Positions 10,787-34,543 of a stretch of DNA of 64,000 nucleotides are shown piece by piece. The stretch's first letter is position 1, and each line of letters starts with the position of its first letter. The translations under genes and the position numbers were made by a program. This stretch comes from Mycobacterium sp. Its GTDB lineage: Bacteria; Actinomycetota; Actinomycetes; Mycobacteriales; Mycobacteriaceae. The DNA is taken from contig DATBFF010000222.1 of NCBI GenBank assembly GCA_036558625.1, positions 1,309-65,308 of the forward strand, given 5' to 3'. A model generated the notes under the pieces. The model was not told the origin of the DNA, searched no databases, and worked only from the letters and a program-made list of their open reading frames with translations.

Positions 10787-12529
10787 GTGATCACCCGTAT
10801 GTCCGAGCTGTTCCTGCGCACGCTGCGCGAGGACCCGGCCGATGCCGAGGTGGCCAGCCACAAGCTGCTGATCCGCGCCGGCTACATTCGGCCCGTCGGC
10901 CCAGGCTTGTACACATGGCTGCCGCTGGGCCTGCGGGTGCTGCGCAACATCGAGCGAATCATCCGCGACGAGATGAATGCGATTGGCGGCCAAGAGATCC
11001 TGTTTCCGGCGCTGCTGCCGCGGGCCCCGTACGAGACGACGAACCGTTGGACGGAGTACGGTGACGCGGTTTTCCGGCTGCGCGACCGCCGCGACAACGA
11101 CTATCTGCTCGGCCCCACCCACGAGGAGCTGTTCACGCTCACGGTGAAGGGAGAGTACAGCTCCTACAAGGATTTTCCGCTTCTGCTGTACCAAATCCAG
11201 ACGAAATACCGCGACGAGGCACGGCCCCGCGCAGGCATTCTGCGTGGCCGCGAATTCGTGATGAAAGACTCCTATTCGTTCGACGTCGACGAAGCCGGGC
11301 TGAAGGACCACTACCACGCGCACCGCGAGGCGTACCAACGGATCTTCGACCGGATGGGTGTGCGATACGTGATCGTGTCCGCGGTGTCTGGAGCGATGGG
11401 CGGCAGCGCGTCAGAGGAGTTCCTCGCCGAAAGCCCTATCGGGGAAGACACTTTCGTGCGGTGCTTGCAGTCGGGTTATGCGGCCAACGTTGAGGCCGTG
11501 CTCACCGCGCGTCCCGATCCGCGACCCTTCGACGGGCTGCCTGAGCCTGTCGTGCACGACACTCCGGACACACCGACGATTGCCACGCTCGTCGACTGGG
11601 CCAACAGCGCATTGGACCGATCCGTCACTGCAGCAGACACGCTGAAGAACGTCGTGATCAAGTTCCGTCGGCCCGGCGGTGAGTGGGAGTTGTTGGCCGT
11701 CGGTGTGCCGGGTGACCGCGAGATCGACGACAAGCGGTTGGGCGCTGCGTTGGAGCCCGCTGAGTATGCGCTTCTGGGTGACGAGGACTTCGCCAAGTAT
11801 CCATTCTTGGCGAAGGGGTATATCGGACCGAAGGCATTGACCGAGAACAACGTTCGCTATCTCGTCGATCCGCGTATCGTCGACGGGACCAGTTGGATCA
11901 CTGGTGCGGACGAGCCGGGCCGCCACGTCGTCGGGTTGGTGGCCGGACGAGATTTCGTGGCCGACGGCACCATCGAGGCCGCGGAAGTGCGCGACGGCGA
12001 CATGTCGCCGGACGGCGCGGGTCCGCTGGTATCGGCGCGGGGCATCGAGATTGGCCACATCTTTCAGCTCGGCCGAAAGTACACCGACGCTTTTTCGGTC
12101 GACGTGCTCGGCGAAGACGGCAAGCCTGTGCGACTCATCATGGGCTCCTACGGGATTGGAGTCTCACGGCTGGTCGCTGTGATCGCCGAGCAGCACCACG
12201 ACGACATCGGGCTGCGGTGGCCGACGTCGGTGTCGCCGTTCGGCGTTCACCTGGTGATCGCGAACAAAGACGCGGCCGCTCGCGACGGTGCGACCGAACT
12301 GGCCCGCGAGCTGGACCGGCTAGGCGCCGACGTGCTGCTCGATGACCGCCAGGCGTCACCCGGCGTGAAATTCAAGGACGCAGAGTTGGTGGGCGTGCCG
12401 TGGATCGTGGTGGTCGGCCGCGGCTGGGCCGACGGGATCGTCGAATTGCGCAACCGGTTCAGCGGCGAAACGCAGGAAGTTCGCGTTGACGTCGCGGCCA
12501 CCGAGATCGCCGCTGCGATCACGCGCTGA
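10787..12529 (+). CDS. proS: Proline--tRNA ligase
   Basis: [42 protein letters not shown]-type motif 2 ([17 protein letters not shown]), GSYGIGVSR. Confidence 0.97.
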
Positions 12530-12532
12530 CGG

Positions 12533-13003
12533 CTACTCGGCGCCGCCGGGAAACGGCCGTGTCATCGGCCACTCGCCCAGCACATGGCGCCATCGGGCTG
12601 CCCAGGTCGCGCATTGGGTCAAAGAGGTAATCGCGGAGGACCGATCCGTCGGCGAATCTGCCTGCTCCAGCACCGCACGCCAGGCCACGGCGTCGTCGTC
12701 TTCCATCCGGACGGCAAGCGTCGCGGCGTCGTGGACGTTGTTGACCGCGATCGGCAGCTGGTAGGCGACCGCGGCGGTCGGCGCAGCCACTCCGCGCGAC
12801 GACAGTGTTTGGATGGCCGCGTCCCGGCGGGCGCGGTGCTGCGCGAGGGCGTCCGACACCAAGTCGTTGAGGTCCGGTGTGGAGTGCGCCGAGACGAAGC
12901 CGTAGCCGTAGATCGTGGCGTGCTCGGCGGCGATCGCATCCGCCAGCGCTTTGTCGGCGGCCGACTTTGGCTGCTTCGTGTCAGTGGGGTGAGGCGACGT
13001 CAC
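12533..13003 (-). CDS. Ferritin-like domain protein (DUF4439, Rv2844-like)
   Basis: ALADAIAAEHATIYGYG...AYQLP...AVRMEDDDAVAWRAVLE; GTGA-coupled to the upstream gene. Confidence 0.8.
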   Translation of the reverse strand: MTSPHPTDTKQPKSAADKALADAIAAEHATIYGYGFVSAHSTPDLNDLVSDALAQHRARRDAAIQTLSSRGVAAPTAAVAYQLPIAVNNVHDAATLAVRMEDDDAVAWRAVLEQADSPTDRSSAITSLTQCATWAARWRHVLGEWPMTRPFPGGAE

Positions 13004-18328: not shown

Positions 18329-19759
<1,431 letters not shown>

Positions 19760-19987
19760 GCCGGGCTTGCTGCCCGAATGTGCGGTTTCATACGAGACAC
19801 CCCGTGGCGGCCGTATGAATCCGCGCTCGCAGGGCATATGCCGTCCATTTCGAAACGGTGCTGCCGCGGTGGCCGCGTCCTGTCGCATGGCATGACTAGC
19901 AACTCACGGCCCCTACCATCAGTGCCGCAGGACAGTGCCGTTCGGGGTGAGCAAAGCGGAAGTCCAAGATCGCAACTGCCCGTGACG

Positions 19988-20038
19988 AAGTAGTACTGCT
20001 CGCAAACCGGGCGAAATTGCAGTAGTGCGCTACTGAGT
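19988..20038. promoter_or_regulatory. Candidate operator: AAGTAGTACTGC...TTGCAGTAGTGCGCTACTGAGT upstream of the lipase
   Basis: Inverted repeat CAGTAG-N4-CTACTG at 20020-20035; near-identical copy at 22201-22251. Confidence 0.7.
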
Positions 20039-20131
20039 TTGTTCCGCCACACCGAAGCGACGATCTCATCGTGGCCTCGACACCGGACGTCTTGGCCATC
20101 GTTTCACTAGGGAATGGATGGAGAAACGACG

Positions 20132-22081
20132 ATGAACAACGCAAAGTACATCGGTCGGGTCGGGGCATTGGCGGTCGCGTTAGGGGTGGGGATCGCTGTC
20201 GTCAGTACGCCTGCAGTGGCATCGGCCGAGCCGTCGGATTCCGGCACGAGTTCGTCGTCTAGTTCGTCGTCTAGTTCCGGCTCGACGTCTTCTGATTCGT
20301 CGTCAACGACGTCGTCGACGTCAGCGGGTGACCTCCGCGGTCGCCATCGGACTTCCCTGAAACCGCCCGGTTCGATGGCGGTAAGCGGTTCCGGCGCCGC
20401 AACGAGCTCGTCGACGGCCGCGTCTGATCGGCAGTCCAGGCGGAGGGGTGCAAACGTGCCCGGAGTGACAGTCGAAACTGGCGGACTGCAAACCAGCTCA
20501 CCGACAGTGCCGTCTCCGTCGGCGCCGCGACCTGTGGGGGCCGATGCCGGTCCGAGGTCGCGAACAACAGCTGCCATGAGGCCAGCACGGCTCAGCACGG
20601 CCTCACCGGCGTCTGACTATTCGGCGGCGGAGGCTACCCCGGCCCGGACCGCAGTGAACGCACCCGCTGCCGACACCACGGCGCGGGCCAATAGTTTGGA
20701 CGCCCGCGTCTTTGCGGACGTGGTGCAACCATCGGCGTTAACGACTGCGCCGGTTGCGTCGACCCTCGGCGCTGCTACACCAACGGCGATATCAGTCCCC
20801 GACTCCGCATCGGTGGTGCAGCAGCCCGCGAACGCGGTCCGTGCTCCGGCATCCGCCAATATCGTGTCGACCCTTGTCAGCGCGGTGCTCTCGCCGTTTG
20901 CCAATAACGCGCCGTCGATGCCTGCGCAGCCGCCGACAGTGTGGACGCTGCTGGCCTTCGCGCGCCGCGAATTTGAGCAGGCATTATCCGTCCCATCGCC
21001 GATCGTCAAACCGCTCGCCGGTCAAATCTCCGGCGGGCTCGTCTCCGAAACCCCCACGCTCGACGGCCAGTCGATCGACACGGCAATCACCGGCAACATC
21101 GGTGCGTCCACCGCGGCCCTAGCGGACCTGACGGTAAACGCACAGCCTGCCGCCAGCGTGGCGCCGGCCACATTCACCGGTGAACCATCGGTCGTATCCC
21201 ATGTCTTCACCGGGGTCTTCCGGGTTGTGCACGCAGCCGGCGACTTCTTGGGTGTAGATCTACGAATCCCGCTACTAAAGCTGCTGTCGAGTGAGCGGCC
21301 GCCGTGGTTTACGACGCTGGGACTAAACGTGCAACGCGGCGAGTTCGAGGGGATGCCCGTCTGGACACTGCAGTCCCGCGGAGCGACGTCGGAAGAGACA
21401 GTCGTGGCCATTCACGGGGGCGCGTTCATTGTGCAGCCCACCATCTTTCATTGGCTCGATTACGCTGCCATCGCTCGCGACACCGGCGCCACGTTGATCG
21501 TGCCGCTGTACCCACTGGTGCCACAGGGAGGCACCGCCGGCACGGTCGTGCCCGCGATCGCGGACTTGATCTCCTCGCAGATTGACCAACGCGGGGCCGA
21601 GAACGTCAGTGTGTTCGGCGATTCCGCTGGCGGCAATATGGCGCTGGCGGCGGTGCAGGAATTGGTGCGCCGCGGTGGCCCCGCGCCGTCGCACATGGTG
21701 TTGATTTCACCGCCGGTCGACGCCACCCTGAGCAACCCGGCCATTCAATTTGTAGACGACCCCCTCTTTTCGGGTCTCCTCCCGACTCTCCACAATATCG
21801 CCCAACAATGGGCCGGCGACCTCGACATAACCGATCCGCTGGTCAGTCCCCTCTTCGGGTCACTGGCGGGGCTTCCGCCGACCGCGGTCTACTTCGGAAG
21901 CCTGGAAATCCTCGCGCCCGATGGGCTTGTCCTCCAAGAAAAGGCCTTAGCGACGCCGGGCGCCGATTTCACCTTCATCCTGCGCAAGGGTGAAATACAC
22001 GACTGGGCGAGCGTCACTCTTTTGCCCGAGACGCGAGCTGTTCTCCCAGACATTTACCGACAGCTAGGCATCTCTGCGTGA
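20132..22081 (+). CDS. Secreted HSL-family lipase/esterase with a long Ser/Ala/Pro-rich N-terminal region
   Basis: Signal MNNAKYIGRVGALAVALGVG..ASA; catalytic domain IHGGAF, FGDSAGG, GEIHDW. Alternative ATG at 20114. Confidence 0.85.
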   Translation: MNNAKYIGRVGALAVALGVGIAVVSTPAVASAEPSDSGTSSSSSSSSSSGSTSSDSSSTTSSTSAGDLRGRHRTSLKPPGSMAVSGSGAATSSSTAASDRQSRRRGANVPGVTVETGGLQTSSPTVPSPSAPRPVGADAGPRSRTTAAMRPARLSTASPASDYSAAEATPARTAVNAPAADTTARANSLDARVFADVVQPSALTTAPVASTLGAATPTAISVPDSASVVQQPANAVRAPASANIVSTLVSAVLSPFANNAPSMPAQPPTVWTLLAFARREFEQALSVPSPIVKPLAGQISGGLVSETPTLDGQSIDTAITGNIGASTAALADLTVNAQPAASVAPATFTGEPSVVSHVFTGVFRVVHAAGDFLGVDLRIPLLKLLSSERPPWFTTLGLNVQRGEFEGMPVWTLQSRGATSEETVVAIHGGAFIVQPTIFHWLDYAAIARDTGATLIVPLYPLVPQGGTAGTVVPAIADLISSQIDQRGAENVSVFGDSAGGNMALAAVQELVRRGGPAPSHMVLISPPVDATLSNPAIQFVDDPLFSGLLPTLHNIAQQWAGDLDITDPLVSPLFGSLAGLPPTAVYFGSLEILAPDGLVLQEKALATPGADFTFILRKGEIHDWASVTLLPETRAVLPDIYRQLGISA

Positions 22082-22154
22082 GTGAGTCGCGCACCGCACT
22101 CGCTACAGAACCTGCCCGTCGAACTGCACTGCGCGCCGCAAAAGCCACAGATCA
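22082..22154 (-). pseudogene. 5' remnant (zinc ribbon) of a third cyclase-ATPase gene
   Basis: Closely matches 27051-27123; translates as ICGFCGAQCSSTGRFCSECGARLT; no in-frame start and no cyclase domain follows. Confidence 0.8.
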
Positions 22155-22200
22155 CAAGCGTCCCATTTCGAAACGGTGCTCTCACCGTCGCCGCGCGACT

Positions 22201-22251
22201 AAGTAGTACTGCGCGGGAATCGGGCGAGGTTGCAGTAGTGCACTACTGAGT
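22201..22251. promoter_or_regulatory. Second copy of the candidate operator, upstream of the PE-PPE gene
   Basis: Perfect 16-bp palindrome CAGTAGTGCACTACTG at 22233-22248, preceded by AAGTAGTACTGC. Confidence 0.7.
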
Positions 22252-22344
22252 GTGCCGCACCGCCCGGCGGCGAGGATTCCGATAGCGGAAGGCCTAACCC
22301 ACGGTGGGCTTGTGTTCGCCGGGACGGAGAGACGGAGGCCGGCG

Positions 22345-23949
22345 ATGAGAAGCGGGAAGCATGTTCGTCGCATCACCACACGGATGACGGTGGCGATCGC
22401 AACCGTGGTGCTGGTGGCGACGGCCACGGCCCTGTCGGGACTGCCGTCGAGGGTGTCGCCGCTTATTCAATTGTCCGCCGACTCGACCGCCTTGATCATG
22501 GGTGGGACCAGTGTCTCGACGCCCGACAACGCCTACATCGGAATTGTCATGAACCACTTCATCGCCCCGACGCATGCGGGCCAGACCATCACGCCGGTGG
22601 CGGTGACCACGCCCGAAGAGTTTTGGCCTGTCACCGGGATCGTCCGCCTCGGCGGAAGCGTGTTCGGCTCTCCGGGCATCTGGGGCCCCGGTAGCTCAGC
22701 GTGGCCGGATGAGCCGTGGTGGAAACTCTCGGGGCTCTTCGACCTCACCATAGATCGGTCAGTCCGGGCTGGGGTCGCCGATCTGGAGCAGGCGATGGCC
22801 AAGAACGCCAACGACGATCTGGTGATCTACGGCTACTCGCAAGGCGCGGTCATCGCTAACGCGGAGAAGCGCAAGCTCGCCGAACAGTACCCGGCAGGAA
22901 CCACCGCGCCCGACATCGACTTCGTGCTGAGCGGTGACCTCAATGTGCCTAACGGCGGTCTTCATGCCCGATTCCCGGGCCTTTACCTTCCGATCCTCAA
23001 TTGGACTTTCAACGGCCCCGAGCCGACCGATACCCAGTTCCACAGCGACGTCATCACTCGCCAGTACGACGGCTTGGCCGATTTCCCGTTGTATCCGCTC
23101 AACCTCGTCGCCGACCTGAACGCGCTTCTGGGCATCTTCTATGTGCACTTGAACGACTTCGACGTCAGCTTGGCTCCGGTTGCGTCGAAGTCGGCGGCGT
23201 TTCAGGGCACCCACGGCGATACAAGCTATTACTTCTTTCCGACTCAGGACTTACCGCTATTCGCACCGCTGCGCGCCCTGGGGGTGCCTGAGTCGGTGAT
23301 CGACGTGGTGGAGCCGTTCCTCCGGGTGCTCGTAGAACTGGGCTATGACCGCAGCATCCGGCCGTGGGTACCCACAGCTGCACGGCTGATCCCGAGGCTC
23401 GACCCGGCGAAGGTGATCACCGATCTCGTCAAGGCAATCGGCGAGGGCATCGACAACGCTCGAGCCCTCTTCGGGTTGCCCGCTCGGGTGAGCAAGTCCG
23501 CTCCGGCCACACTTGCGGCACCGGCCGAGGAAGCCGCGAGCACCGACATTTCGCGCCAGGTGACGTTGACGGACATCACGCCGCCGAACCTCCGGCGGAC
23601 TCAAACCGAACAGATGGGTTCGACGAAACGCGCGACCGGAAATGCGCCTGCGTCGGCGCTGACGGCACCTCGTGTTCCTTCGGCTTTGGCCCTCGCCTCG
23701 ACCACCGAGCGGGTGAAGCCGGCTTTGCGGCCAGTGACGCCTCGGCACATGGTGCGGGATTCGCTCGGCGCGACCGAGCAGCCACGCGGTTTTCCGCGCC
23801 GTCGCAATGGCCCGGCCACCTCGACCACCGGGACCACGGCTGCCGACCGAGTGACGTCAGCTGGATCGTCGTCAGCTTCTTCGCCGTTGGCTGGCAGAAC
23901 TTCCTCGGCCGGCGCTTCATCTGGCGGCGACGGCGGCGGTTCCAATTGA
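22345..23949 (+). CDS. PE-PPE domain serine hydrolase (signal peptide, no PE/PPE N-terminus)
   Basis: TALIMGGT, YGYSQGA, YDGLADFPLYPLNLVADLNALLGIFYVH, LVELGYDR; GGAGG before the ATG. Confidence 0.88.
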   Translation: MRSGKHVRRITTRMTVAIATVVLVATATALSGLPSRVSPLIQLSADSTALIMGGTSVSTPDNAYIGIVMNHFIAPTHAGQTITPVAVTTPEEFWPVTGIVRLGGSVFGSPGIWGPGSSAWPDEPWWKLSGLFDLTIDRSVRAGVADLEQAMAKNANDDLVIYGYSQGAVIANAEKRKLAEQYPAGTTAPDIDFVLSGDLNVPNGGLHARFPGLYLPILNWTFNGPEPTDTQFHSDVITRQYDGLADFPLYPLNLVADLNALLGIFYVHLNDFDVSLAPVASKSAAFQGTHGDTSYYFFPTQDLPLFAPLRALGVPESVIDVVEPFLRVLVELGYDRSIRPWVPTAARLIPRLDPAKVITDLVKAIGEGIDNARALFGLPARVSKSAPATLAAPAEEAASTDISRQVTLTDITPPNLRRTQTEQMGSTKRATGNAPASALTAPRVPSALALASTTERVKPALRPVTPRHMVRDSLGATEQPRGFPRRRNGPATSTTGTTAADRVTSAGSSSASSPLAGRTSSAGASSGGDGGGSN

Positions 23950-23950
23950 T

Positions 23951-26900
23951 TTAAGGGCGACCGTCGACCATCGCCTCGGCCCATTCGATGTGTCCTTCGA
24001 AGCCAAGCGATTTCGCCATGGCGCGGTAGCGATCCCGGTAATCCCGGTAGTCCATCTCATCGCCGCGGGCACGGGCTAGCAGGGCATGCAGCCGCAGCAG
24101 CCAGATGTCGCGCACAACTGACCCGTCGTCTGCTGGCGCGGCCGCTAGCCGCTCGATAGCGGCCTCGGCTTCGGCCACATCCGCCCCGGCGCCGCGTTCG
24201 AGCAGCGTCTCCACCAGGACACCCGTCGCAGGGATTCCCCACGAGAGCAGCTGGCCCTCGCGAACCAGGTCGTCGATGGCCGCGCGCATGAGCGCTATCG
24301 CCTCCTCGCGATCTCCACGCCGAGCCAACTCACGCCCCAAGTACGTGTTGACGGACCGTAACTCGCTCAGGTTGTGTCCCCGTCGTTCGAACATGTCGCT
24401 GATCTCCGCCAGCAGCTGCTGTCCGCGGTCTCGCTCGGCGTCCGTGTGGCGGTGCACTAGCGCAAGGGCCAGAATCGCCCGGTCGAAGGCCACCGCCATA
24501 TCATCACCGGATCGTTCGGCAATCCGTAGCGCATCCTCGATCTCGCGCAGGGCCGCATCATCAACAGCCAGTACGCCAAACGGTATTCCCGGGAAGTAGA
24601 CATAGGCGACAACCGTGGCATACGAAAACGGGTCGACGCTGCGGGCCATGGCCAGGCCGTGCCGCACGTCGTCGCGCCATCCGGGACGACCCAGGCAATA
24701 CCGGCCGATAGCCCTCGTCGTACAGGCGAGAGCTAGCGGAGACCCGATCATCAGGTTCCCTTTAGAAGGATCGCCGTCGGCGAGGTCGATGGCCCGCTGC
24801 GACCACCGCAGCACGTCGCACCACTCACCGCTGTGAGCCTTGGCGTAGATCACCGGGAAGGACAGCCCCACCGTCAGAGTCGCATCGCCGAGCGACTCGA
24901 CGAGCGCCCACGCTTCCGATGCCAGCTGCGACGCCTCGCGGTTCCGGCCTTGGAATCCTCGGTCTATCACCAGCCCTGCCATGCCGATGGCCAGTGAAGC
25001 CTTGTCCTCGGCGGCGGCGCACAACTCCCGCAATTCATCAATCCGATTGCCTGCCACGTTTGCGTGGAGTCTCCAGGCGATCCCGCACAGCATCGTCCGG
25101 GGTGCGACGCGCATCGCTGTCCGGTTCGCGTCTTCGGTTGGCAGCGTGTCGGCGATCGCTTGGGCGCGCTCCCAACTTTGTCGCGCCGCGGCGATGTCGC
25201 GGTATGTCGCCCACGTGGCGGCGCGCATATGCCACTGATACGCGGCGTGCAGATCCTCGGCGGCCTCCAGATGTTCGGCAATCAAAGCCGCGTTCTCCTC
25301 TGCCGCCGCGGGGTCACGTGATTCGATTGCGACCGCGACGCGTCGGTGGAGTTCGGCACGATCGGATTTGAGCTGGGATTCGTAGGCCACGGCGCGAATC
25401 AGCGGGTGCCTGAAGGCATATTCGGCGTGCGGGGTGAACCGCACCTGATCGATCAGTTCCGCGTCCAGCAATTCGTCAACCGCTGCGTCGACGCCCACCG
25501 CGGCGAGCAGCCGCGTGTCGAAGCGGGCCCCGATCACCGATGCCGCGTTCAATGTTCGCTTGGCCGGGGCGGTCAGCCGGTCGATGCGGGCCTCGATGGC
25601 CGCCTGCACCGTTTCCGGCACGGTCAGCTCGGCGACGTCGGCGCGACAAACGTAGTCGCCGTGCTCACCGGTCAGCACGCCGCGTTGTACCAATTCGCGC
25701 ACCATCTCCTCGGCGAAGAACGGATTGCCGGCGGCACGTTCGGCGATGATTGTCATAAGCTCGCCGACCGAGGGATCCGAACCCAGCAGCGCCGAGAGCA
25801 GGGCAGCGGTGTCCGAATCACCCAGTGGGGCAAGCGCGATCGTCTGACCGCCGTGCACCCGGGTCAGCGCGCCTTCATATTCGGGACGGTAAGTGATCAG
25901 CACCATCGACGGCGTACGCGGAATCACGGTGAGCAAGTCGGCCACCATCGACTCGCTGACCTCGTCGATCCAGTGGGTGTCCTCGATGATGTAGAGCACC
26001 GGTTCGGTGCGTGCCAGCGTCACCGAGTTCAGCAGCGCGGTTAACCGCCGCCGCCGCGCATCGGGGTCGATCTGGGGCAGCGCCACATCCGGATCGGCGA
26101 TGCCCAGCAGATCATCGAGCAGCAGCAGATCCTGCGGGTCGGCGTCGGGGACCTGTTCGTGGGCGCGAGCGCGGGCAGCTTGGTCATCGAGGTCGACGAC
26201 GCCGCTAGCCGTGCGCAGCAGCCGCGTGACCACGTCGAAGGCAATGTCGCTGGCGTGGGATTCGCAGTAGGTCCAATACACCTCGGCGCCGCGAGCCGCC
26301 GCCAATGCTGCGGCCTCGCGGGCCACCCGAGACTTGCCGATACCGGGCGGTCCCACCACATTCACCACGCCACCGTTACCGCCGGTCGTGGCGCCCACCA
26401 AAGCTTCGAGGGCGGCCATCTCCCAGCGCCGGCCGACCAGGCTGGCCTCGGTGCGCCCAATCAGCGCACGCCGCGGGCCGATGGCCACCAGCCGGCGAGC
26501 CCGCACCGGCTCATCGGAGCCCTTGATGCGCACCCACTGCGGGTCAGAGAGCACGACGCTGTCTTCGACCAGCCGGGCGGTCGACTCCGAGAGCATCACC
26601 GCGCCTGCGGGCGCTACCGATTCCATCCGCTGCGCGAACCCGACGTGCCGCCCGGTCGCTGCGTAGCCCAAGGATCCCGAGCCGATATCGCCGGCGATCA
26701 CGCGGCCCGAATTCAGCCCGACCCGTACTTGCAGCGCCACCTCGTCACGCCGCTGTATTTCGGTGGCCAACTGCTTCATCTCGTCCTGGATGGCCAAAGC
26801 GGCCACACATGCCCGAAAAGCGTGGTCCTCCAAGGCCGTTGGGGCGCCGAATAGCGCCATCACCCCATCGCCGGTGTACTCGACGCGCCCGCCGCCGTAG

Positions 26901-27220
26901 CGCTCGACCACTGCCGCCGACCGCTCCACGAGTTCGCCCATGATTTCGCGGTACCGCTCCGAATCGAGGATTGCCGCGAGGTCCATGGAGCGCACCACAT
27001 CGGCGAAAAGCACTGTCACCTGTTTGTACTCAGCCGAACGGCTCGCCTGTGTGAGTCGCGCACCGCACTCGCTACAGTACTTGCCCGTCGAACTTGAACG
27101 TGCGCCGCAGGAACCACAGATCAGCCGCGTCGCGGCCAGTCCATCGCCACCATCCCGGCTGGCACCCACGGCACCTATCGTTTCACCGCTGATCAGCGAT
27201 GTCTGCCGTATCGCCGCCAT
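23951..27220 (-). CDS. Zinc ribbon - class III nucleotide cyclase - AAA ATPase - helical/TPR-like protein (copy A)
   Basis: CGSC..CSEC, VTVLFADV, EYTGDG, RVGLNSG, VGFAQRMES, GPPGIGKS, IIEDTHWID. ORF track extends to 27229. Confidence 0.9.
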   Translation of the reverse strand: MAAIRQTSLISGETIGAVGASRDGGDGLAATRLICGSCGARSSSTGKYCSECGARLTQASRSAEYKQVTVLFADVVRSMDLAAILDSERYREIMGELVERSAAVVERYGGGRVEYTGDGVMALFGAPTALEDHAFRACVAALAIQDEMKQLATEIQRRDEVALQVRVGLNSGRVIAGDIGSGSLGYAATGRHVGFAQRMESVAPAGAVMLSESTARLVEDSVVLSDPQWVRIKGSDEPVRARRLVAIGPRRALIGRTEASLVGRRWEMAALEALVGATTGGNGGVVNVVGPPGIGKSRVAREAAALAAARGAEVYWTYCESHASDIAFDVVTRLLRTASGVVDLDDQAARARAHEQVPDADPQDLLLLDDLLGIADPDVALPQIDPDARRRRLTALLNSVTLARTEPVLYIIEDTHWIDEVSESMVADLLTVIPRTPSMVLITYRPEYEGALTRVHGGQTIALAPLGDSDTAALLSALLGSDPSVGELMTIIAERAAGNPFFAEEMVRELVQRGVLTGEHGDYVCRADVAELTVPETVQAAIEARIDRLTAPAKRTLNAASVIGARFDTRLLAAVGVDAAVDELLDAELIDQVRFTPHAEYAFRHPLIRAVAYESQLKSDRAELHRRVAVAIESRDPAAAEENAALIAEHLEAAEDLHAAYQWHMRAATWATYRDIAAARQSWERAQAIADTLPTEDANRTAMRVAPRTMLCGIAWRLHANVAGNRIDELRELCAAAEDKASLAIGMAGLVIDRGFQGRNREASQLASEAWALVESLGDATLTVGLSFPVIYAKAHSGEWCDVLRWSQRAIDLADGDPSKGNLMIGSPLALACTTRAIGRYCLGRPGWRDDVRHGLAMARSVDPFSYATVVAYVYFPGIPFGVLAVDDAALREIEDALRIAERSGDDMAVAFDRAILALALVHRHTDAERDRGQQLLAEISDMFERRGHNLSELRSVNTYLGRELARRGDREEAIALMRAAIDDLVREGQLLSWGIPATGVLVETLLERGAGADVAEAEAAIERLAAAPADDGSVVRDIWLLRLHALLARARGDEMDYRDYRDRYRAMAKSLGFEGHIEWAEAMVDGRP

Positions 27221-27462
27221 TCGACACAAACTTTCGAGGCTCTCATGCCGGGGTGCACCCGGACTTCCTCTCGCGCCGGGGCGCTTGCGGCAAAGAAGCT
27301 GCTGACCGCTGCAGCGAGGCGCTCCAGATGACCCTCGAGTGGAGATGTCAAGGTGCCAAAGCCTGCGGATCGGCAGGCAACCGCTCAGAGCGGTCCGCCA
27401 GCCGAGTCACGATGCGGCTCTGCATCACCGATAGCCGATCCGCTAAACCGGTGATGCCCCGA

Positions 27463-30400
27463 CTATTTACCGCCCTCGGTCATGTTTTCGGCCCAGTCGA
27501 TGTGTCCTTCGAAGCCGAGCGATTTCGCCATCGCGCGGTAGCGATCCCGGTAATCCCGGTAATTCATCTCATCGCCACGAGCCCGAGAGAGCAGCGCGCG
27601 CAGCCGCAGCAAGGTTATTGCGAGCACCGCCGAATCATGCTCTGCGGCAACGTTCGCCATCCAGTCGATCGCCTCTTGAGCTTCGGTCAGATCGCCTTCG
27701 GCGGCGCGGTCCAGCAGCGTCTCCATCAAGACACCGGTGGCCCACACGCCATAGAAGGGGTATCCCTGGCGCAGCTCGTCGACGGCTTGACGCATCGCCG
27801 CTATGGCAGCATCGTGGTCGCCGCGCCTGGCCGTTTCGCGGGCGGCCCACACGTCGGTGACCGGTAGGAGGAAGAAGATCTGCCTGCGCAGCCATAGCTC
27901 GCGGGTCTGCATCATCAGTTCAAGCCCGCGGTGACGGTCGGCCGCGTCGTCCTGACTCAGTAGGCTGACAGCCAACGTGTAACCGGCCAAGCCCAGCGCT
28001 CGATCGCTACTGGCTCTTTGGGCGGTCTGCACCGCATCCTCGCTGGCGCGCAGCAGCGAGTCATCAGCCCGAAGCACCCCGTATTGCATCGCGAAACCGT
28101 AGGTCCAGGCGATGGCCCCGGAGAGGGTTTCCGCGTTGCTGCGTCGGGCCATCGCGACGGCGTCGTGGAGGTCTTCACGCCATCCGGCACGGCCCAGACA
28201 CCACCGAGCGGTGCCGCGCCATCCCAACGCGATCGCGAGCGGTGATGCCACGCCGTAGCCGGCGCCCTTGACGGGGTCACCGGCTGCCAGGTCGACCATG
28301 GTCTGCGACCACCGCAAGACTTCGCCGAATTCCAGGACACCGTGCCAGCTGCAGAAGGTTACGGCCGCCAACCCCATGGTCGGGGTGGGATCGCCGATCG
28401 ACTCGAGTAGCGCCATCTGTTGGGATGACAACTGCGCGGCCTCACGCGCGCGCCCCGCGTACATGAGCTCGGTGGCGGGCCCGCTCATGCCGATGGCCAG
28501 CGAGACCTTGTCCCCAGCCGCAATGCACAACTCCTGCAGCTCCGCGAACCGGCCCCGGCTCTCGTGGATCGCTCGCGCTTGAAAGTCGGTGGCACACAGC
28601 ATGGTGCGGGGAGCGATCCGCATCGACAGTTGGTCGGGGTCGTCGGCAGGCAGCAGATCGGCGATCCGGAGTGCACGCTCCCAGCTGCTCCGGGCGGCGT
28701 TCAGATCGCGGTTGGTGGACCACGCACCGGCACGCATATGCCAGCCATACGCCGCGTGCAGTTCACCCGCAGCCTGCAGATGTTCGGCGATCAGCGCAGC
28801 GTTCTCCTCGACTGACCCCGGCGCACGCTCTTGAATTGCGGCGGCCAGACGTCGGTGCCACTCGGCGCGATCGGAATTCAGCTGTGATTCGTAGGCCACC
28901 GCGCGGATCAGCGGGTGCCGGAACGCGTACTCGGCACTTGCGGTGAAGCGCACCTGCTCGATCAGCTCCGCGTCGAGCAGCTCATCGAACATCGCATCGC
29001 TGCCCAACGCGGACAGCAGCTCCGCCGCGAATCGGACTCCAATCACCGACGCCGCGTTCAACGTCCGTCTGGCAGGGGCGCTCAGCCGGTCGATGCGCGC
29101 GTCAATGGCCGCCGCCACAGTGGCGGGCACGCTCACCTCGGCGACATCCTCGCGACAGGTGTGGCCGCCGCGTTCACCGGCGAGTACGCCGCGCTGGACC
29201 ATCTCGCGCACCATCTCCTCGGCGAAAAACGGGTTCCCGGCGGCCCGCTCGGCGATGACCGCCACGAGTTCGCGAACCGAGGGATCCGACCCCAGCAGTT
29301 CACCGAGCAGCGCGTTGATGTCCGTATCGCCCAGTGGGCCAAGCGCTATCGTCTGCGCACCATGCACCCGCAGCAGCGCGCCCTCGTACTCGGGGCGGGA
29401 GGTGATCAACACCATCGACGCCGTGTGCGGGATCACGGCCAGGAAGTCGGCCAGCATTGACTCGCTGACCGCATCGATCCAGTGTGCATCCTCGATGATG
29501 AACAGCGCCGGTTTGCTTCGGGCCAGCGCGCGCGTGTTGATCAGTGCGGTCAACCTGCGCCGTCGGACGTCCGGGTCCATCTGGGGCAGAGACACATTCG
29601 GGTCGGCGATGCCCAGCAGGTCATCGAACAGGAGCAGATCTTGCGGATCGGCATCCGGAATCTGCTGTCGCACTCTTGCGCGGGCGGCTTGGTCGTCGAG
29701 GTCGGTCAAATCGTTGCCTGCGCGCAGCAGCCTGGTGACGGCATGGAATGGAATGTCGCGAGCATGCGATTCGCAGAACCCCCAGAACACCTCCGCCCCA
29801 CGACTGGCAGCCAAGGCGGCGGACTCCCGGGCCAATCGGCTTTTGCCGATGCCCGGCGGTCCCACCACATTCACCACACCACCACGCCGACCAATCGCGC
29901 GCTCCAGCATCGCGTCGAGAGCCGCCATTTCCCAATGCCGACCGACCAGGCTCGCCTCGGTGCGTCTGACCAAACCATCGCGCGGGTTGATCGACAGCAG
30001 CCGTTGCGCGCGAATCGGCCCGTCGGCGCCTTTGATATGCACCCATTCCGGTTCAGCCAAAATGACGGTGTGCTCGACCAGCTGCGCGGTCGCCTCCGAA
30101 AGCATCACCCCAGCCGGCGGCGCCGCAGACTCCATCCGCTGTGCAAACCCGACCGTCTCGCCCGTCGCGGCGTACCTGGGCGATCCCGTACCGACCTGAC
30201 CGACGATCACCCGACCCGAATTCAGGCCGACTCGCAACTCCAGGGCCACGCCATCGGTGCACTGAACCTTCTTAGCCAAACCATCTGCTTCTTCCTGGAT
30301 AGCCAGGGCGGCCAGGCATGCCCGGAAAGCATGATCCTCCAAGGCAATCGGGGCGCCGAACAACACCATCAATCCGTCGCCGGTGAACTCCACGGTCCCG

Positions 30401-30729
30401 CCGCCGTAGCGGCGCGCCACCGCGGCCGAGCGCTCCACCAGCTCAGTGATGACCTCCCGCAGCCGCTCGATATCCAGGACGGCTGCAAGGTCCATCGAAC
30501 GCACCACATCGGCGAACAACACCGTCACCTGCTTGTACTCCGACGAACGGGTTGCCTGTGTGAGTTGCGAACCGCACTCGCTACAGAACTTGCCCGTCGA
30601 ACTCGAATGCGCGCCGCAGGAACCGCAGATCAGCCCTGTCGCGGCGAGTCCTTCGCCGCCATCCCGGCTGGCACCCACGGCACTTATCGTTTCACCGCTG
30701 GACAGTGATATCTGGCGTATCGCCGCCAT
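27463..30729 (-). CDS. Zinc ribbon - class III nucleotide cyclase - AAA ATPase - helical/TPR-like protein (copy B)
   Basis: Same architecture: VTVLFADV, EFTGDG, VGFAQRMES, GPPGIGKS, IIEDAHWID; shared C-terminus YRDYRDRYRAMAKSLGFEGHI. ORF track extends to 30738. Confidence 0.9.
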   Translation of the reverse strand: MAAIRQISLSSGETISAVGASRDGGEGLAATGLICGSCGAHSSSTGKFCSECGSQLTQATRSSEYKQVTVLFADVVRSMDLAAVLDIERLREVITELVERSAAVARRYGGGTVEFTGDGLMVLFGAPIALEDHAFRACLAALAIQEEADGLAKKVQCTDGVALELRVGLNSGRVIVGQVGTGSPRYAATGETVGFAQRMESAAPPAGVMLSEATAQLVEHTVILAEPEWVHIKGADGPIRAQRLLSINPRDGLVRRTEASLVGRHWEMAALDAMLERAIGRRGGVVNVVGPPGIGKSRLARESAALAASRGAEVFWGFCESHARDIPFHAVTRLLRAGNDLTDLDDQAARARVRQQIPDADPQDLLLFDDLLGIADPNVSLPQMDPDVRRRRLTALINTRALARSKPALFIIEDAHWIDAVSESMLADFLAVIPHTASMVLITSRPEYEGALLRVHGAQTIALGPLGDTDINALLGELLGSDPSVRELVAVIAERAAGNPFFAEEMVREMVQRGVLAGERGGHTCREDVAEVSVPATVAAAIDARIDRLSAPARRTLNAASVIGVRFAAELLSALGSDAMFDELLDAELIEQVRFTASAEYAFRHPLIRAVAYESQLNSDRAEWHRRLAAAIQERAPGSVEENAALIAEHLQAAGELHAAYGWHMRAGAWSTNRDLNAARSSWERALRIADLLPADDPDQLSMRIAPRTMLCATDFQARAIHESRGRFAELQELCIAAGDKVSLAIGMSGPATELMYAGRAREAAQLSSQQMALLESIGDPTPTMGLAAVTFCSWHGVLEFGEVLRWSQTMVDLAAGDPVKGAGYGVASPLAIALGWRGTARWCLGRAGWREDLHDAVAMARRSNAETLSGAIAWTYGFAMQYGVLRADDSLLRASEDAVQTAQRASSDRALGLAGYTLAVSLLSQDDAADRHRGLELMMQTRELWLRRQIFFLLPVTDVWAARETARRGDHDAAIAAMRQAVDELRQGYPFYGVWATGVLMETLLDRAAEGDLTEAQEAIDWMANVAAEHDSAVLAITLLRLRALLSRARGDEMNYRDYRDRYRAMAKSLGFEGHIDWAENMTEGGK

Positions 30730-30831
30730 CTTCGACACGAACTTTCCAGATTCTCGTAAGTGGTCTGAATCGAGACCGATCGTTTCGAGTGTTCAGATCG
30801 ATCGGCCGATCCGGACACGGTGCCAGCTGCC

Positions 30832-32286
30832 TCAGCCCGCTGATAGCTTCAGCACCCGATGATTGTGGTTGTCGGCTATATACACGTTGCCTGCACCATC
30901 TACTGCTAAGCCGATGGGACGGTTGAGTCCGGCGATGGGCAGGTCCCTCTGAGGTGCCGTCCCGCCGCGCAATATCAGCATCCGACTCGGTAAGGAATTG
31001 CTGTTGTCGTACGTACCCACGCCGTCGGCCACGTAGACGTTTCCGGAGTCATCTACGGCCACACCCGTCGGTTTGTGAAGTCCGGTGAAGGGAAGTTCGA
31101 TCTGCGGAGCCCTTCCACGTGACAACATCAACACCCGTGAATGGCGTTCGTCGCTGACGTATACGTCGCCCCTACTGGTCAGAGCTATCCAGGACGGCCA
31201 ATCCAGGCCGGTGAACGGTAGTTCGTCCTGCGGGCCTTTTCCCGCAGTTAATTTGAGTACGCGGTTGTTGCCCACGTCGACGACGAAAATATCGCCGGCA
31301 TCATCGAGGGCGATCCCGGCGGGATAGTTGAGCCCCGCGAACGGCAGTTCGATCTGCGGGCCTGATCCGCCCGGCAACTCGAGAACACGGTTGTTGTTGC
31401 AATCGGTGACATACACATTGCCCGCGTCATCCACCGCCACGCCATTTGGGTTGCTGAGTCCCGTGAACGCGAGCTCGGTCTGTGGTCCTGAGCCGCCAGC
31501 CAACTTCAACACCCGCTTGCTTGCAAAGTCTGTCACGTAGATGTTGCCTGCCCGATCCACGGCGACTCCGACGGGGTCAGTCAGGCCAGTGATCGGCAGC
31601 TCGGTAACCTTCGGCTCAGATAACTTGTTGTTGGACGGCTCTTTTCGTGCGGTACTGACGACCGCCACGACTGATACAGCGATGATGAGTAGAACGATTG
31701 CCGAAGCTGCCGCCAATGCGCTGCGACGACGCCACCATGGGCGCGTCGGGACCGAAGGACCCGAATGGTCTGCTTGCCCAGAAGCTGGGACTGGTGGCGC
31801 CGCACGATCTGCCGATCCGCCGGATTTGGCTCGCTCAACATCGGTGCGCGGGATGTTTTCAGAACCGGTGCCGGCTGACGGACGAGAGCCGACGAAGGTC
31901 TTGACCGCAGTCGCAAGTCGCTCGAGATGGCTTTCAAGTGGCGGAGTCATCGCATCAAGCCAGTGGGGTGTCCCGAGGAAGTACTCCAGGCCGCGCTCGG
32001 GGGCAACATCTTCGATGCGGAACGGGATCAGCACAGTTTCAGCGTTCACTGCTCGTTCGACCTCACGTTTGATCTGGGGCGAAGCGTTGGCGTGCTGACT
32101 GAACACAAGCACCATGACGCGGGACGAACGGATCGCATCGACGATGGCCTCTCCCCAGTCTTGGCCAGGTACGACGTCGCGCGGCGCGATCCAGCAGCGA
32201 ATGCCGTCGGCTTCCAAAGTGGCGCATACCGCATCGGCTGCCGGCTTGTCGTGGTGCGAGTAGCTGATGAACACGTCATGTGCCAC
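30832..32286 (-). CDS. TIR domain - transmembrane helix - six NHL-repeat beta-propeller protein
   Basis: TIR: DVFISYSHHD..CWIAPRDVVPGQDW..IKREV; TM ALAAASAIVLLIIAVSVVAVV after RPWWRRR; six LPFTGL..P.GVAVD..GNVYV.D..N.RVLKL repeats. Confidence 0.9.
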   Translation of the reverse strand: MAHDVFISYSHHDKPAADAVCATLEADGIRCWIAPRDVVPGQDWGEAIVDAIRSSRVMVLVFSQHANASPQIKREVERAVNAETVLIPFRIEDVAPERGLEYFLGTPHWLDAMTPPLESHLERLATAVKTFVGSRPSAGTGSENIPRTDVERAKSGGSADRAAPPVPASGQADHSGPSVPTRPWWRRRSALAAASAIVLLIIAVSVVAVVSTARKEPSNNKLSEPKVTELPITGLTDPVGVAVDRAGNIYVTDFASKRVLKLAGGSGPQTELAFTGLSNPNGVAVDDAGNVYVTDCNNNRVLELPGGSGPQIELPFAGLNYPAGIALDDAGDIFVVDVGNNRVLKLTAGKGPQDELPFTGLDWPSWIALTSRGDVYVSDERHSRVLMLSRGRAPQIELPFTGLHKPTGVAVDDSGNVYVADGVGTYDNSNSLPSRMLILRGGTAPQRDLPIAGLNRPIGLAVDGAGNVYIADNHNHRVLKLSAG

Positions 32287-32514
32287 GGCTGAATCCCCCG
32301 TTTGTAGCTTCGCCTCACACTTGTCGCGACCACACAGCGGTCACTCAGGAAGCTAACGCATAGGGGCCGCTACCGGCGCGAAACTTGACGATCATTCCGA
32401 TCAGGCGAGACGGCTGCGAAAGCCTCAGATCGTCGTTATCGTTCTGTCCTCTACGACGAGAGCACGGGCGCGGGCCGCGAGCTCTGGGCGACATGGAATG
32501 TGATCAGGAGTGAC

Positions 32515-33213
32515 ATGGGAAACGATCTAGGTCGCATTCGGCTACACGACCCCAAGAGTCGTGAGTTTGAATTCCCGGCGCGCAAGGCCACCGCCGGTCT
32601 GAGCGTGCGACATCGACTTGACGCGCGGCACGTCGATCAGTTTTTTCTCTCGGGCTGTGTGGGCTATTCGGGCACGAACATGCTCAACACACGACCGGCG
32701 CGCTCCAGCCGCCAGAAGTTCAACTCGATCGCCCACCAGAAGGTCACAACTCGCTACCTGAAGAACAGCGATGGCACCTACAATTACAGTGCCGCAACGA
32801 AGTTCGACCCCTTCGACTGGACATATCCGCCAACCGACGAGGGTTCTAGTGCCCTGGGACTGATGAAGTTCTGGCAGAAATCCGGCGTTATCTCCGGCTA
32901 CGACTGGACTTTCACGTTCGATCAATTCCTGGCCGCACTGCAACGACAGCCTGTGCTCGTAGGAACCATGTGGTACGACGACATGATGTCCACCGACTCG
33001 GCCGGCGTCATCCATTCATCGGCGTCAGGCAAAGGCGGTGGGCACGAGTATCTGGCCAACGCGATCCTGTGGGGTAAGCGGCTGATCGGCTATGAGCAGT
33101 CATGGGGCGAGCATCCCCGTGGGTTTTCACCCACGTTCTACATGTCTTTCGATCTTGCTGAGGAACTGATCATCCATCAGAAAGGTGACGTAGCAGTTCC
33201 AAGGTTTCAGTGA
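32515..33213 (+). CDS. Papain-like (C1-type) cysteine peptidase, putative
   Basis: DQFFLSGCVG (Gln/Cys), GGGHEY (His), QSWG in place of NSWG; AGGAG before the ATG; no signal peptide. Alternative GTG at 32500. Confidence 0.72.
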   Translation: MGNDLGRIRLHDPKSREFEFPARKATAGLSVRHRLDARHVDQFFLSGCVGYSGTNMLNTRPARSSRQKFNSIAHQKVTTRYLKNSDGTYNYSAATKFDPFDWTYPPTDEGSSALGLMKFWQKSGVISGYDWTFTFDQFLAALQRQPVLVGTMWYDDMMSTDSAGVIHSSASGKGGGHEYLANAILWGKRLIGYEQSWGEHPRGFSPTFYMSFDLAEELIIHQKGDVAVPRFQ

Positions 33214-33220
33214 ACTGGCA

Positions 33221-34543
33221 GTGACTGCGTCGGGGGACTCAACCGCAAGCGCCGGCCGGATCGCTGCGCTCGCGTTCCCGGCTCTCGGTGTGCTGGCTGC
33301 CGAACCTTTGTATCTACTCTTCGACACCGCCATCGTCGGGCGCCTCGGTGCACTGGCGCTCGCCGGTCTGGCGATCGGCGGCCTGATCGTCAACATGGTC
33401 GGGTCCGGTCTGGTCTTCCTGTCGTACGGCACGACCGCGCGCTCGGCGCGACAATACGGAGCGGGCGACCGCGCGTCGGCCGTTGGTGAAGGCGTGCAGG
33501 CCACCTGGCTAGCCCTAGCGCTCGGCGTGCTGTTCGTCATCGTCATCCAGCTGGCGGCGGTGCCCATCGTGTCGGCGATCGCCTCGCAGGCCGACATAGC
33601 CGGCGAGGCATTGTCGTGGCTGCGGATAGCCGTGTTCGGCGCCCCGGCGATGCTGATGTCGCTGGCGGGCAACGGCTGGATGCGCGGCGTGCAGGACACC
33701 GTGCGGCCGCTTTGGTATGTGGTCATCGGATTCACGGTGTCAGCGGTGCTGTGCCCGCTGCTGGTCTACGGGTGGCTTGGGCTGCCGCGCTGGGAATTGG
33801 CCGGTTCCGCGGTGGCGAACCTGGTAGGTCAGTGGGTCGCCGCGCTACTGTTCGCCTGGGCGCTGATACGCGAGCGGGCTCCGCTCGGCGTCGACGTGCA
33901 GGTGTTGCGCGGTCAGGTCGTCATGGGCCGCGACCTGTTCGTGCGCACGCTCGCCTTCCAAGCGTGCTACCTGTCCGCGGCGGCCGTCGCCGCCAGGTTC
34001 GGTGCGGCAGCTGTGGCCGCACACCAAATAGCACTGCAGTTGTGGAATTTCCTTGCGCTCGTGCTGGATTCGCTTGCGATCGCCGCCCAGGCGCTCGTCG
34101 GTGCCGCGCTCGGCGCCAGGCTTGCCGAGCACGCGAAGTCTGTGGCGTGGCGGGTGACCGCCTACTCCGCTGCCGCGGCCGCGGTCCTCGCGGCGCTGCT
34201 AGCCGCCGGCGCGTCGGTGTTTCCGCACTTGTTCACCGACGACCGCTCCGTGCTCCACGCGGTCGACGTGCCGTGGTGGTTCCTCGTCGCCCAATTGCCA
34301 GTCGCAGGAGTGGTTTTCGGTCTCGACGGCGTGCTGTTGGGCGCCGGGGACGCAAAGTTCATGCGCAACGCGACGGTGATCAGCGCGCTGATCGGTTTTC
34401 TGCCGCTGATCTGGCTGTCACTGGTGTTCGGATGGGGGTTGGCAGGCATCTGGTCGGGTCTCTCGACGTTCATCGCGCTGCGGTTGGTGTTCGTCGGGTG
34501 GCGTGCGCTGTCGGGCCGCTGGACCGTGCTGGGCACCGGCTAG
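33221..34543 (+). CDS. dinF: MATE family efflux protein DinF (Rv2836c-like)
   Basis: LAFPALGVLAAEPLYLLFDTAIVGRLG, GNGWMRGVQDT, AAHQIALQLW. Confidence 0.92.
   Translation: MTASGDSTASAGRIAALAFPALGVLAAEPLYLLFDTAIVGRLGALALAGLAIGGLIVNMVGSGLVFLSYGTTARSARQYGAGDRASAVGEGVQATWLALALGVLFVIVIQLAAVPIVSAIASQADIAGEALSWLRIAVFGAPAMLMSLAGNGWMRGVQDTVRPLWYVVIGFTVSAVLCPLLVYGWLGLPRWELAGSAVANLVGQWVAALLFAWALIRERAPLGVDVQVLRGQVVMGRDLFVRTLAFQACYLSAAAVAARFGAAAVAAHQIALQLWNFLALVLDSLAIAAQALVGAALGARLAEHAKSVAWRVTAYSAAAAAVLAALLAAGASVFPHLFTDDRSVLHAVDVPWWFLVAQLPVAGVVFGLDGVLLGAGDAKFMRNATVISALIGFLPLIWLSLVFGWGLAGIWSGLSTFIALRLVFVGWRALSGRWTVLGTG

Follow-up and report, generated by a model that had tools for sequence, protein, structure and literature searches.

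Within a 64,000-nucleotide stretch of DNA from Mycobacterium sp. (the window; contig DATBFF010000222.1 of assembly GCA_036558625.1, positions 1,309 to 65,308), the reverse strand carries a gene, referred to here as the TIR-NHL gene, whose 484-residue product joins an N-terminal TIR domain through a disordered linker and one transmembrane (TM) helix to a C-terminal six-bladed NHL β-propeller of the type found in the receptor kinase PknD. We propose that this protein is a type II receptor in which a ligand or an envelope change would gate the clustering of TIR domains and, through it, the cleavage of NAD+, and we give this full chain a probability of about 0.55. The proposal draws on the close relationship of the TM helix and propeller to those of PknD-like kinases, on a charge bias across the helix that is consistent with a cytoplasmic TIR domain, and on a conserved glutamate in the TIR domain. 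The parts of the gene, all on the reverse strand, are as follows.

30832..32286, reverse strand: complete open reading frame (ORF) of 484 residues (TIR, linker, TM helix, NHL propeller) with a GTG start; the stop codon is at 30832-30834
32294..32299, reverse strand: Shine-Dalgarno-like GGGGGA, 7 nt upstream of the GTG, read from the sequence
31888..32280, reverse strand: TIR domain, residues 3-133, predicted to be cytoplasmic (Pfam, AlphaFold2 (AF2), Foldseek)
32062..32064, reverse strand: codon of Glu75 (QIKREV), the Glu in the catalytic position at the start of helix αC (alignments)
31744..31887, reverse strand: disordered cytoplasmic linker, residues 134-181, rich in Pro, Ser, Ala and Gly (predicted local distance difference test score (pLDDT) <50)
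31723..31743, reverse strand: juxtamembrane basic motif RPWWRRR, residues 182-188, the putative positive-inside determinant (sequence)
31654..31722, reverse strand: single TM helix, residues 189-211 (Kyte-Doolittle and AF2)
31609..31653, reverse strand: short, weakly charged extracytoplasmic stalk, residues 212-226 (sequence, AF2)
30835..31608, reverse strand: six-bladed PknD-type NHL β-propeller, residues 227-484, predicted to be extracytoplasmic (Pfam, phmmer, AF2, superposition)

A first-pass annotation, made from the letters of the window, had described a Pro/Ser linker, a basic RPWWRRR segment and one TM helix between a TIR domain and a set of NHL repeats. Sequence, hydropathy and the AF2 model put the three connecting elements at exactly the places that it had named, and the Pfam and AlphaFold analyses recovered the whole architecture (TIR_2, NHL, TM helix and propeller).

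The source genome (4.46 Mb) was found in soil metagenomes, and its assembly is fragmented (264 contigs, 93% complete), with a read depth in the soil runs of only 3–6x, so that an assembly chimera, or a decaying and functionless pseudogene, had to be considered. We find this barely credible. The 484-codon frame is unbroken, and a 1212-bp contig from another soil metagenome run, assembled independently, matches positions 31147-32358 with 0 differences, confirming the TIR domain, the linker, the TM helix and the first blades. Because this contig crosses the domain junctions without a difference, the fusion is no artifact of assembly. The TIR-NHL fusion is also present in >20 other proteins, and the TIR domain is under strong purifying selection in >20 full-length homologs.

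Relationship of the propeller to PknD-like kinases

The NHL repeats are recognized by Pfam with an E-value of 4.7e-43, and AF2 models residues 227–484 as six blades with a pLDDT of >90. The propeller superposes on the six-bladed Pizza6 with a TM-score of 0.95 and on the extracellular domain of PknD (1RWI) with a TM-score of 0.91 at 48% identity, and a phmmer comparison of the protein with 1RWI gave an E-value of 7.7e-67, in full accord with the six PknD-type NHL repeats of the first-pass annotation. The sequence of blade 4 departs from the usual pattern (WPSWIALTSRGD), and ~10 residues (GVGTYDNSNSLPS) are inserted in blade 5.

The best 120 homologs of the whole protein include 24 TIR-NHL proteins and 57 PknD-like kinases, and the most similar propeller of all (62% identity) belongs to one of these kinases, P0025. 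BLASTP aligns the two proteins at 54% identity from the RPWWRR motif (residue 182 of the query, 306 of the subject) to the C terminus, a match that takes in the TM helix and all six blades. Both the atypical fourth blade (WPSWIALTSRGDVYVSDERHSRV here, HPSWLALTADGGVYVADEMHSRV in the kinase) and the blade 5 insert (GVGTYDNSNSLPS here, GAGTYETTSVNAS in the kinase) are common to the pair. The RPWWRR motif is shared by the kinases P0021 and P0025 and by the TIR protein P0002, and homology to the kinases starts at, or just before, the C-terminal end of the linker.

In a maximum likelihood tree of 93 propellers, whose sequences are internally repetitive and of which only the starred branches are trustworthy, this protein falls into a four-member clade with 98% support that consists of two TIR proteins and two kinases. 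The TIR-linked propellers are dispersed among the kinase-linked ones, and the tree calls for a minimum of 2, and as many as 8, changes of the TIR label; the phylogenetic comparison with kinase sensors that the first-pass annotation had proposed thus finds the two labels mixed. These comparisons indicate that the TM-plus-propeller module is shared with PknD-like kinases at a near-ortholog level and points to recent ancestry. As the homology to the kinases runs from RPWWRR through the TM helix and the blades, they also imply that one output domain, kinase or TIR, was swapped for the other inside the disordered linker on the cytoplasmic side. The earlier suggestion that a TIR domain has taken the place of the kinase gains support from the P0025 alignment, the shared RPWWRR motif and the mixed clade alike.

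Linker, membrane helix and predicted topology

The linker (residues 134–181) is rich in Pro, Ser, Ala and Gly, cannot be aligned among homologs and is modeled as disordered as far as residue 183, with a pLDDT of <50. It is followed, after the basic motif, by the sole hydrophobic segment of the protein (residues 189–211), which reaches a Kyte-Doolittle value of 2.92 over 19 residues and forms a helix at residues 189–210 in the full-length AF2 model. No signal peptide was found in the 484-residue protein. Across 67 single-pass members of the TIR family described below, the 15 residues that flank the helix on either side contain on average 4.18 Lys plus Arg on the N-terminal side and 1.51 on the C-terminal side; 56 members have more basic residues before the helix than behind it, and 5 have fewer (Wilcoxon p=3e-10). 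Because of this positive-inside bias, the lack of a signal peptide and the homology to PknD, the TIR domain is predicted to be cytoplasmic and the C-terminal domain to lie outside (N-in/C-out, type II), which is also where the first-pass annotation had placed the propeller.

The TIR domain and its conserved glutamate

Pfam assigns residues 5–113 to TIR_2 (PF13676) with an E-value of 7.6e-25 and a score of 88.2 bits against a cut-off of 28. The TIR part of the full-length AF2 run was poor (pLDDT ~50) and is superseded by a TIR-only model, built with a 92-sequence alignment, which has a flavodoxin-like alternating β-α fold with a pLDDT of 89 and a predicted TM-score (pTM) of 0.86. Foldseek matched this model with a probability of 1.0 to RPV1, RPS4, RUN1, MyD88, MAL, SARM1, the SPARTA TIR-APAZ protein, PdTIR and AbTir; the TM-scores to RPV1, RPS4, MyD88, SARM1, PdTIR and AbTir are 0.6–0.78. 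A profile of the full-length alignment searched against the PDB returned propeller noise and no TIR relatives, and a TIR-only profile was used instead. The closest solved structures by sequence are the TIR domain of a TIR-STING fusion (6WT6) and PdTIR (3H16).

In the alignments Glu75 (QIKREV) pairs with the αC Glu of TIR-STING (SKFEM), PdTIR (PQKEL) and TLR6 (CHYEL), at the position where SARM1 and the plant and bacterial TIR NADases have their catalytic Glu. It is kept in 113 of 113 family members and is one of only two invariant columns among 112 cluster representatives. With the Pfam match, these alignments uphold the first-pass description of a TIR_2-like N-terminal domain that retains a Glu at the catalytic position.

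A TIR cassette with diverse C-terminal domains

A search with the TIR domain alone returned 5142 cluster representatives (clustering at 50% identity) at E<=1e-30; at E<=1e-10 the number rises to 14446. The 150th match was still ~65% identical in the TIR domain. The cassette is marked by an HWLDA motif and stands N-terminal to very diverse C termini, among them NHL, PknH_C, SBP_bac_3, Thioredoxin_4/DsbA-like, OmpA, DUF6777 and SH3_3 domains, further FGE-sulfatase, WD40, TPR and ankyrin domains, and many regions with no Pfam match. A TM helix follows the TIR domain in 80 of 115 members and in 58 of 101 independent representatives, mostly as one helix, and the sequence that follows has a median length of 215 residues. 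We define the membrane-anchored 'HWLDA' TIR cassette family here as proteins whose N-terminal TIR domain is at least ~65% identical to the cassette and is followed by basic juxtamembrane residues, one TM helix and a C-terminal ectodomain that varies; the protein of the window has all four features. The NHL, PknH_C and DsbA-like folds are the sensor domains of PknD, PknH and PknE of M. tuberculosis, respectively, and on this basis the TIR family would mirror the repertoire of the receptor kinases.

The top matches of the TIR search also include proteins of another build, P0225, P0228, P0230, P0231 and P0235, in which 3–5 related TIR copies stand in tandem within 600–880 residues.

Proposed mechanism and alternative explanations

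TIR NADases, such as SARM1, the plant TIRs and the bacterial TIR filaments, need self-association, and PknD, a Hanks kinase, is activated by dimerization. We propose that the propeller would respond to a ligand, or to altered conditions in the envelope, with a change of its oligomeric state, and that this would bring the cytoplasmic TIR domains together. Their self-association would then build a composite active site at which NAD+ could be cleaved, as in SARM1, plant TIRs and bacterial TIR filaments. We infer, as did the first-pass annotation, that clustering could drive either NADase activity or the synthesis of a signal molecule. Because no partner gene is conserved next to the gene, the output would be NAD+ depletion, leading to growth arrest or an abortive response, or else an ADP-ribose-derived signal for an unlinked effector. 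Kinase and TIR domain would be exchangeable on one sensor if both are activated by induced proximity, and this common logic would explain their interchangeability.

A second protein encoded by the same genome shows that the design recurs. This TIR_2-TM-NHL protein of 595–615 residues (contig C101, ~11019-12866, reverse strand; locus L012:1501-3288:-) has a TIR domain of another subtype (KVFVSYARVN...ACQREFDWA) that is not detected by the first TIR domain, and its TM helix (residues 287–308) follows the basic stretch PKRKQRKARF. Given the different TIR subtype, this architecture must have arisen on two or more occasions. At four homologous TIR-NHL loci, no neighboring gene is common to the window or to the loci among themselves, and because these loci share no neighbors the gene, as judged from gene order, behaves as a stand-alone receptor in the manner of the receptor kinases.

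Several observations weigh against a membrane receptor with a catalytic TIR domain. No effector or partner gene is conserved at the four homologous loci. Eight of the 24 TIR-NHL homologs have no TM helix (P0011, P0015, P0024 and P0026, and also P0012, P0016, P0020 and P0022). The first four of these form a long-branch clade with 100% support and an unusual amino acid composition, yet carry the same TIR cassette, and as they have no TM helix their propeller must be cytoplasmic, which shows that a TIR-NHL pair can, on the predicted topologies, function wholly inside the cell and is not intrinsically a membrane device. TLR6, a non-catalytic scaffold TIR, has the same Glu as Glu75, and the structural matches from Foldseek do not tell a TIR enzyme from a TIR scaffold; because non-catalytic TLR TIRs keep the residue, we regard Glu75 as necessary but not sufficient for assigning catalysis to a TIR domain. 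Finally, no ligand is known for PknD-type propellers, that of PknD included, a point that would also favor a propeller that merely anchors the protein in the envelope.

The behavior of the TLRs, which retain the Glu without catalysis, raises the question of whether the TIR domain is itself a non-catalytic scaffold, whose clustering would recruit other TIR proteins (for example TIR-STAND NTPases) in a relay like that of Toll and MyD88. MyD88 and MAL rank high in the structural comparison, at least 5 further TIR genes are present in the genome (one lies in an open frame of 1373 residues), and a gene for a TIR-nSTAND1-WD40 giant lies within 0.6–4 kb at two homologous loci. We nonetheless think such a relay unlikely: the neighboring TIR domains are of another subtype, without the HWLDA motif, the proximity of the giant is not conserved (it is absent in L006, in L009 and in the window), and the many conserved polar residues of the cassette (D13, K14, E25, R36, D37, S69, R74, E75, R90, H108 and D111) fit an enzyme better than an adaptor surface. 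Somewhat less likely again is a propeller that serves as an envelope anchor or localizer and not as a ligand-gated sensor, with the TIR domain as a constitutively tethered NAD+-processing enzyme regulated by other means. Whereas the OmpA and SH3_3 ectodomains of the family are classical cell wall-binding modules, its SBP_bac_3 and PknH_C ectodomains are ligand binders, receptor kinases use this very sensor module, and a constitutive NADase would cost the cell dearly.

There is, in our estimate, only a small chance that the TIR-NHL protein is the effector of two adjacent cyclase-ATPases in a Pycsar/Pucsar-like system, perhaps together with the product of the divergent 237-residue peptidase-like gene. 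The TIR-NHL gene is codirectional with the nearer of the two (cyclase B) across a 93-nt gap, the cyclase domains show a weak match to the PycC models of PADLOC (E 3.7e-12), and Pucsar pairs cGMP cyclases with TIR effectors (10.64898/2026.08.12.744502). However, no cyclic nucleotide-binding domain was found in the TIR-NHL protein, no cyclase or peptidase homolog was found within 6 kb at the four homologous loci and one kinase locus (tblastn, gene tables), the cyclases are a local tandem duplication, and the G+C content at third codon positions (GC3) is 0.67 in the TIR-NHL gene against 0.77 in the cyclases. A functional link of the gene to the cyclase-ATPases and the 237-residue ORF was rejected on the lack of co-occurrence at homologous loci and the difference in codon composition. 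Since the TIR-NHL gene has no conserved neighbors, the adjacent cyclase-ATPases are probably unrelated to it.

Comparison with known systems

With PknD (Rv0931c; 1RWI/1RWL) the protein shares the type II layout of cytoplasmic output domain, linker, TM helix and six-bladed NHL propeller, and metagenomic PknD-like kinases are 54–62% identical to its TM-plus-propeller module. It differs from PknD in its TIR output and has no Pkinase match; it is thus no PknD, although its sensor is of the PknD type. With the bacterial TIR proteins (Thoeris ThsB, AbTir, PdTIR, TIR-STING, TIR-SAVED and SPARTA TIR-APAZ) it has the TIR fold and the αC Glu in common. Those proteins are cytoplasmic, respond to intracellular cues and usually have an effector or sensor partner alongside, whereas here the TIR domain is tethered to a predicted extracytoplasmic sensor and has no conserved neighbor. 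The match to the Pfam family ThsB_TIR remains below the cut-off (20.1 versus 21.2 bits) and those to ThsB models are weak, and no Thoeris-type effector (SLOG, Macro, SLATT etc.) stands beside the gene in the window or at the four homologous loci.

The TLR and IL-1 receptors likewise have one TM helix, an outward repeat sensor and a cytoplasmic TIR domain, and signal through induced TIR proximity. They are type I proteins with a C-terminal TIR domain, whereas this protein is predicted to be type II with an N-terminal one; their ectodomains are built of LRR or Ig domains where there is an NHL propeller here, and their receptor TIRs are scaffolds. The Toll-like resemblance is a matter of convergent domain shuffling, an analogy and not shared architectural ancestry. 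SARM1 and the plant TIR-NLRs provide the precedent of a TIR NADase activated by oligomerization (structural matches at TM-scores of 0.63–0.78) but are soluble, multidomain proteins with intracellular triggers. The likeness to Pycsar and Pucsar is that the TIR gene adjoins genes with class III cyclase domains; the difference is that no cNMP-binding domain is present and that the cyclase adjacency is unique to this genome.

As a possible precedent in defense, PD-T4-6 (PADLOC PDLC04043) was also considered and set aside, as the match is confined to positions 306-432 of the 452-position profile, which fall on the TM helix and NHL repeats. Generic Ser/Thr kinases of bacteria are likewise picked up by the PD-T4-6 model (PMC11514479).

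Novelty and implications

Searches of the literature, including a TIR survey, a 2025 screen of TIR systems and a paper on conflict systems, yielded no account of TIR-TM-NHL proteins in bacteria, of a TIR domain exchanged for a kinase or of the large TIR cassette family. In the searchable literature, then, the architecture is not one that is already well characterized. To our knowledge, all characterized bacterial TIR systems (Thoeris, TIR-STING, TIR-SAVED, SPARTA and the Pycsar effectors) sense intracellular events.

It is possible, and we put it forward with more reserve than the mechanism for the single protein, that soil Actinobacteria have a thousands-strong family of outside-in TIR receptors in which kinase-interchangeable sensors would gate a TIR NADase by proximity. 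If so, these proteins would be a prokaryotic functional counterpart of the Toll-like receptors and the first bacterial TIR signaling across a membrane. They would couple envelope events (contact with a phage, for instance, molecules from competitors or damage to the wall) to NAD+ depletion or to NAD-derived second messengers. The swap of a kinase for a TIR domain on one sensor module would amount to a natural experiment in which the same ligand is read out by two outputs. It would make testable whether induced proximity is the common activation logic of receptor kinases and TIR domains, what PknD-type propellers sense, and whether NAD+ metabolism in mycobacteria is under envelope control.

Genomic context and distribution

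The gene lies in an insertion that is specific to this genome, with the following flanks and neighbors.

18668-19759: nrnA, flank of the insertion
19760..33220, no strand: genome-specific insertion of 13.46 kb between nrnA and dinF (same-genus comparison)
23951-27229 and 27463-30738, reverse strand: two tandem duplicated genes for proteins of 1091-1092 residues with a zinc ribbon, a class III cyclase domain and an AAA_16 ATPase
32500-33213, forward strand: 237-residue ORF, ending 7 nt before dinF, with a low GC content (0.57)
33221-34543: dinF, flank of the insertion

The spacing between nrnA and dinF is 10–80 nt in 8 of 8 same-genus genomes in which both genes were found, against 13.46 kb here. 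The insertion contains a lipase gene, a PE-PPE gene, the two cyclase-AAA_16 ATPase genes, the TIR-NHL gene and the 237-residue ORF, and neither an integrase nor a flanking direct repeat was seen at it. The two cyclase-ATPase genes are 70–79% identical to each other in nucleotide sequence and encode a 1091-residue type that is common in mycobacteria. The 237-residue ORF has no match in Pfam, NCBIfam or PADLOC, and a distant homolog (30–37% identity) was found in only 2 of 60 same-genus genomes. GC3 is 0.67 in the TIR-NHL gene and 0.69 in the 237-residue ORF, lower than in the cyclases (0.77) and core genes (0.79–0.87), which suggests that the TIR-NHL gene and the ORF were acquired separately and more recently.

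In 200 other genomes of the taxonomic family the TIR subtype was not found, leaving the copy in the window as the only one, so that the gene is sporadic in sequenced representatives, though abundant in metagenomes. PknD-type propellers occur in about half of the same-genus genomes; a kinase-NHL (PknD) gene was not found in the source genome.

At two of the homologous loci we observed genes for TIR_2-nSTAND1-WD40 giants of >1250 residues (L007:8190-12527 and L008:1-2107, both on the reverse strand). They lie 0.6–4 kb from the TIR-NHL homologs, and their TIR domains are of different subtypes. The L007 locus also holds a TIR-FHA gene.

Elsewhere in the insertion, an 87-nt fragment (22076-22162) abuts the stop codon of the lipase gene and is 80–83% identical to the 5' ends of the cyclase genes; it seems to be what is left of a third copy. 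The lipase and PE-PPE genes are preceded by duplicated blocks of 84 nt (19981-20064 and 22194-22277) and 48 nt (19830-19877 and 22148-22195). The copies are 75–76% identical and contain a CAGTAG...CTACTG inverted repeat, and the blocks may be an operator shared by the two genes.

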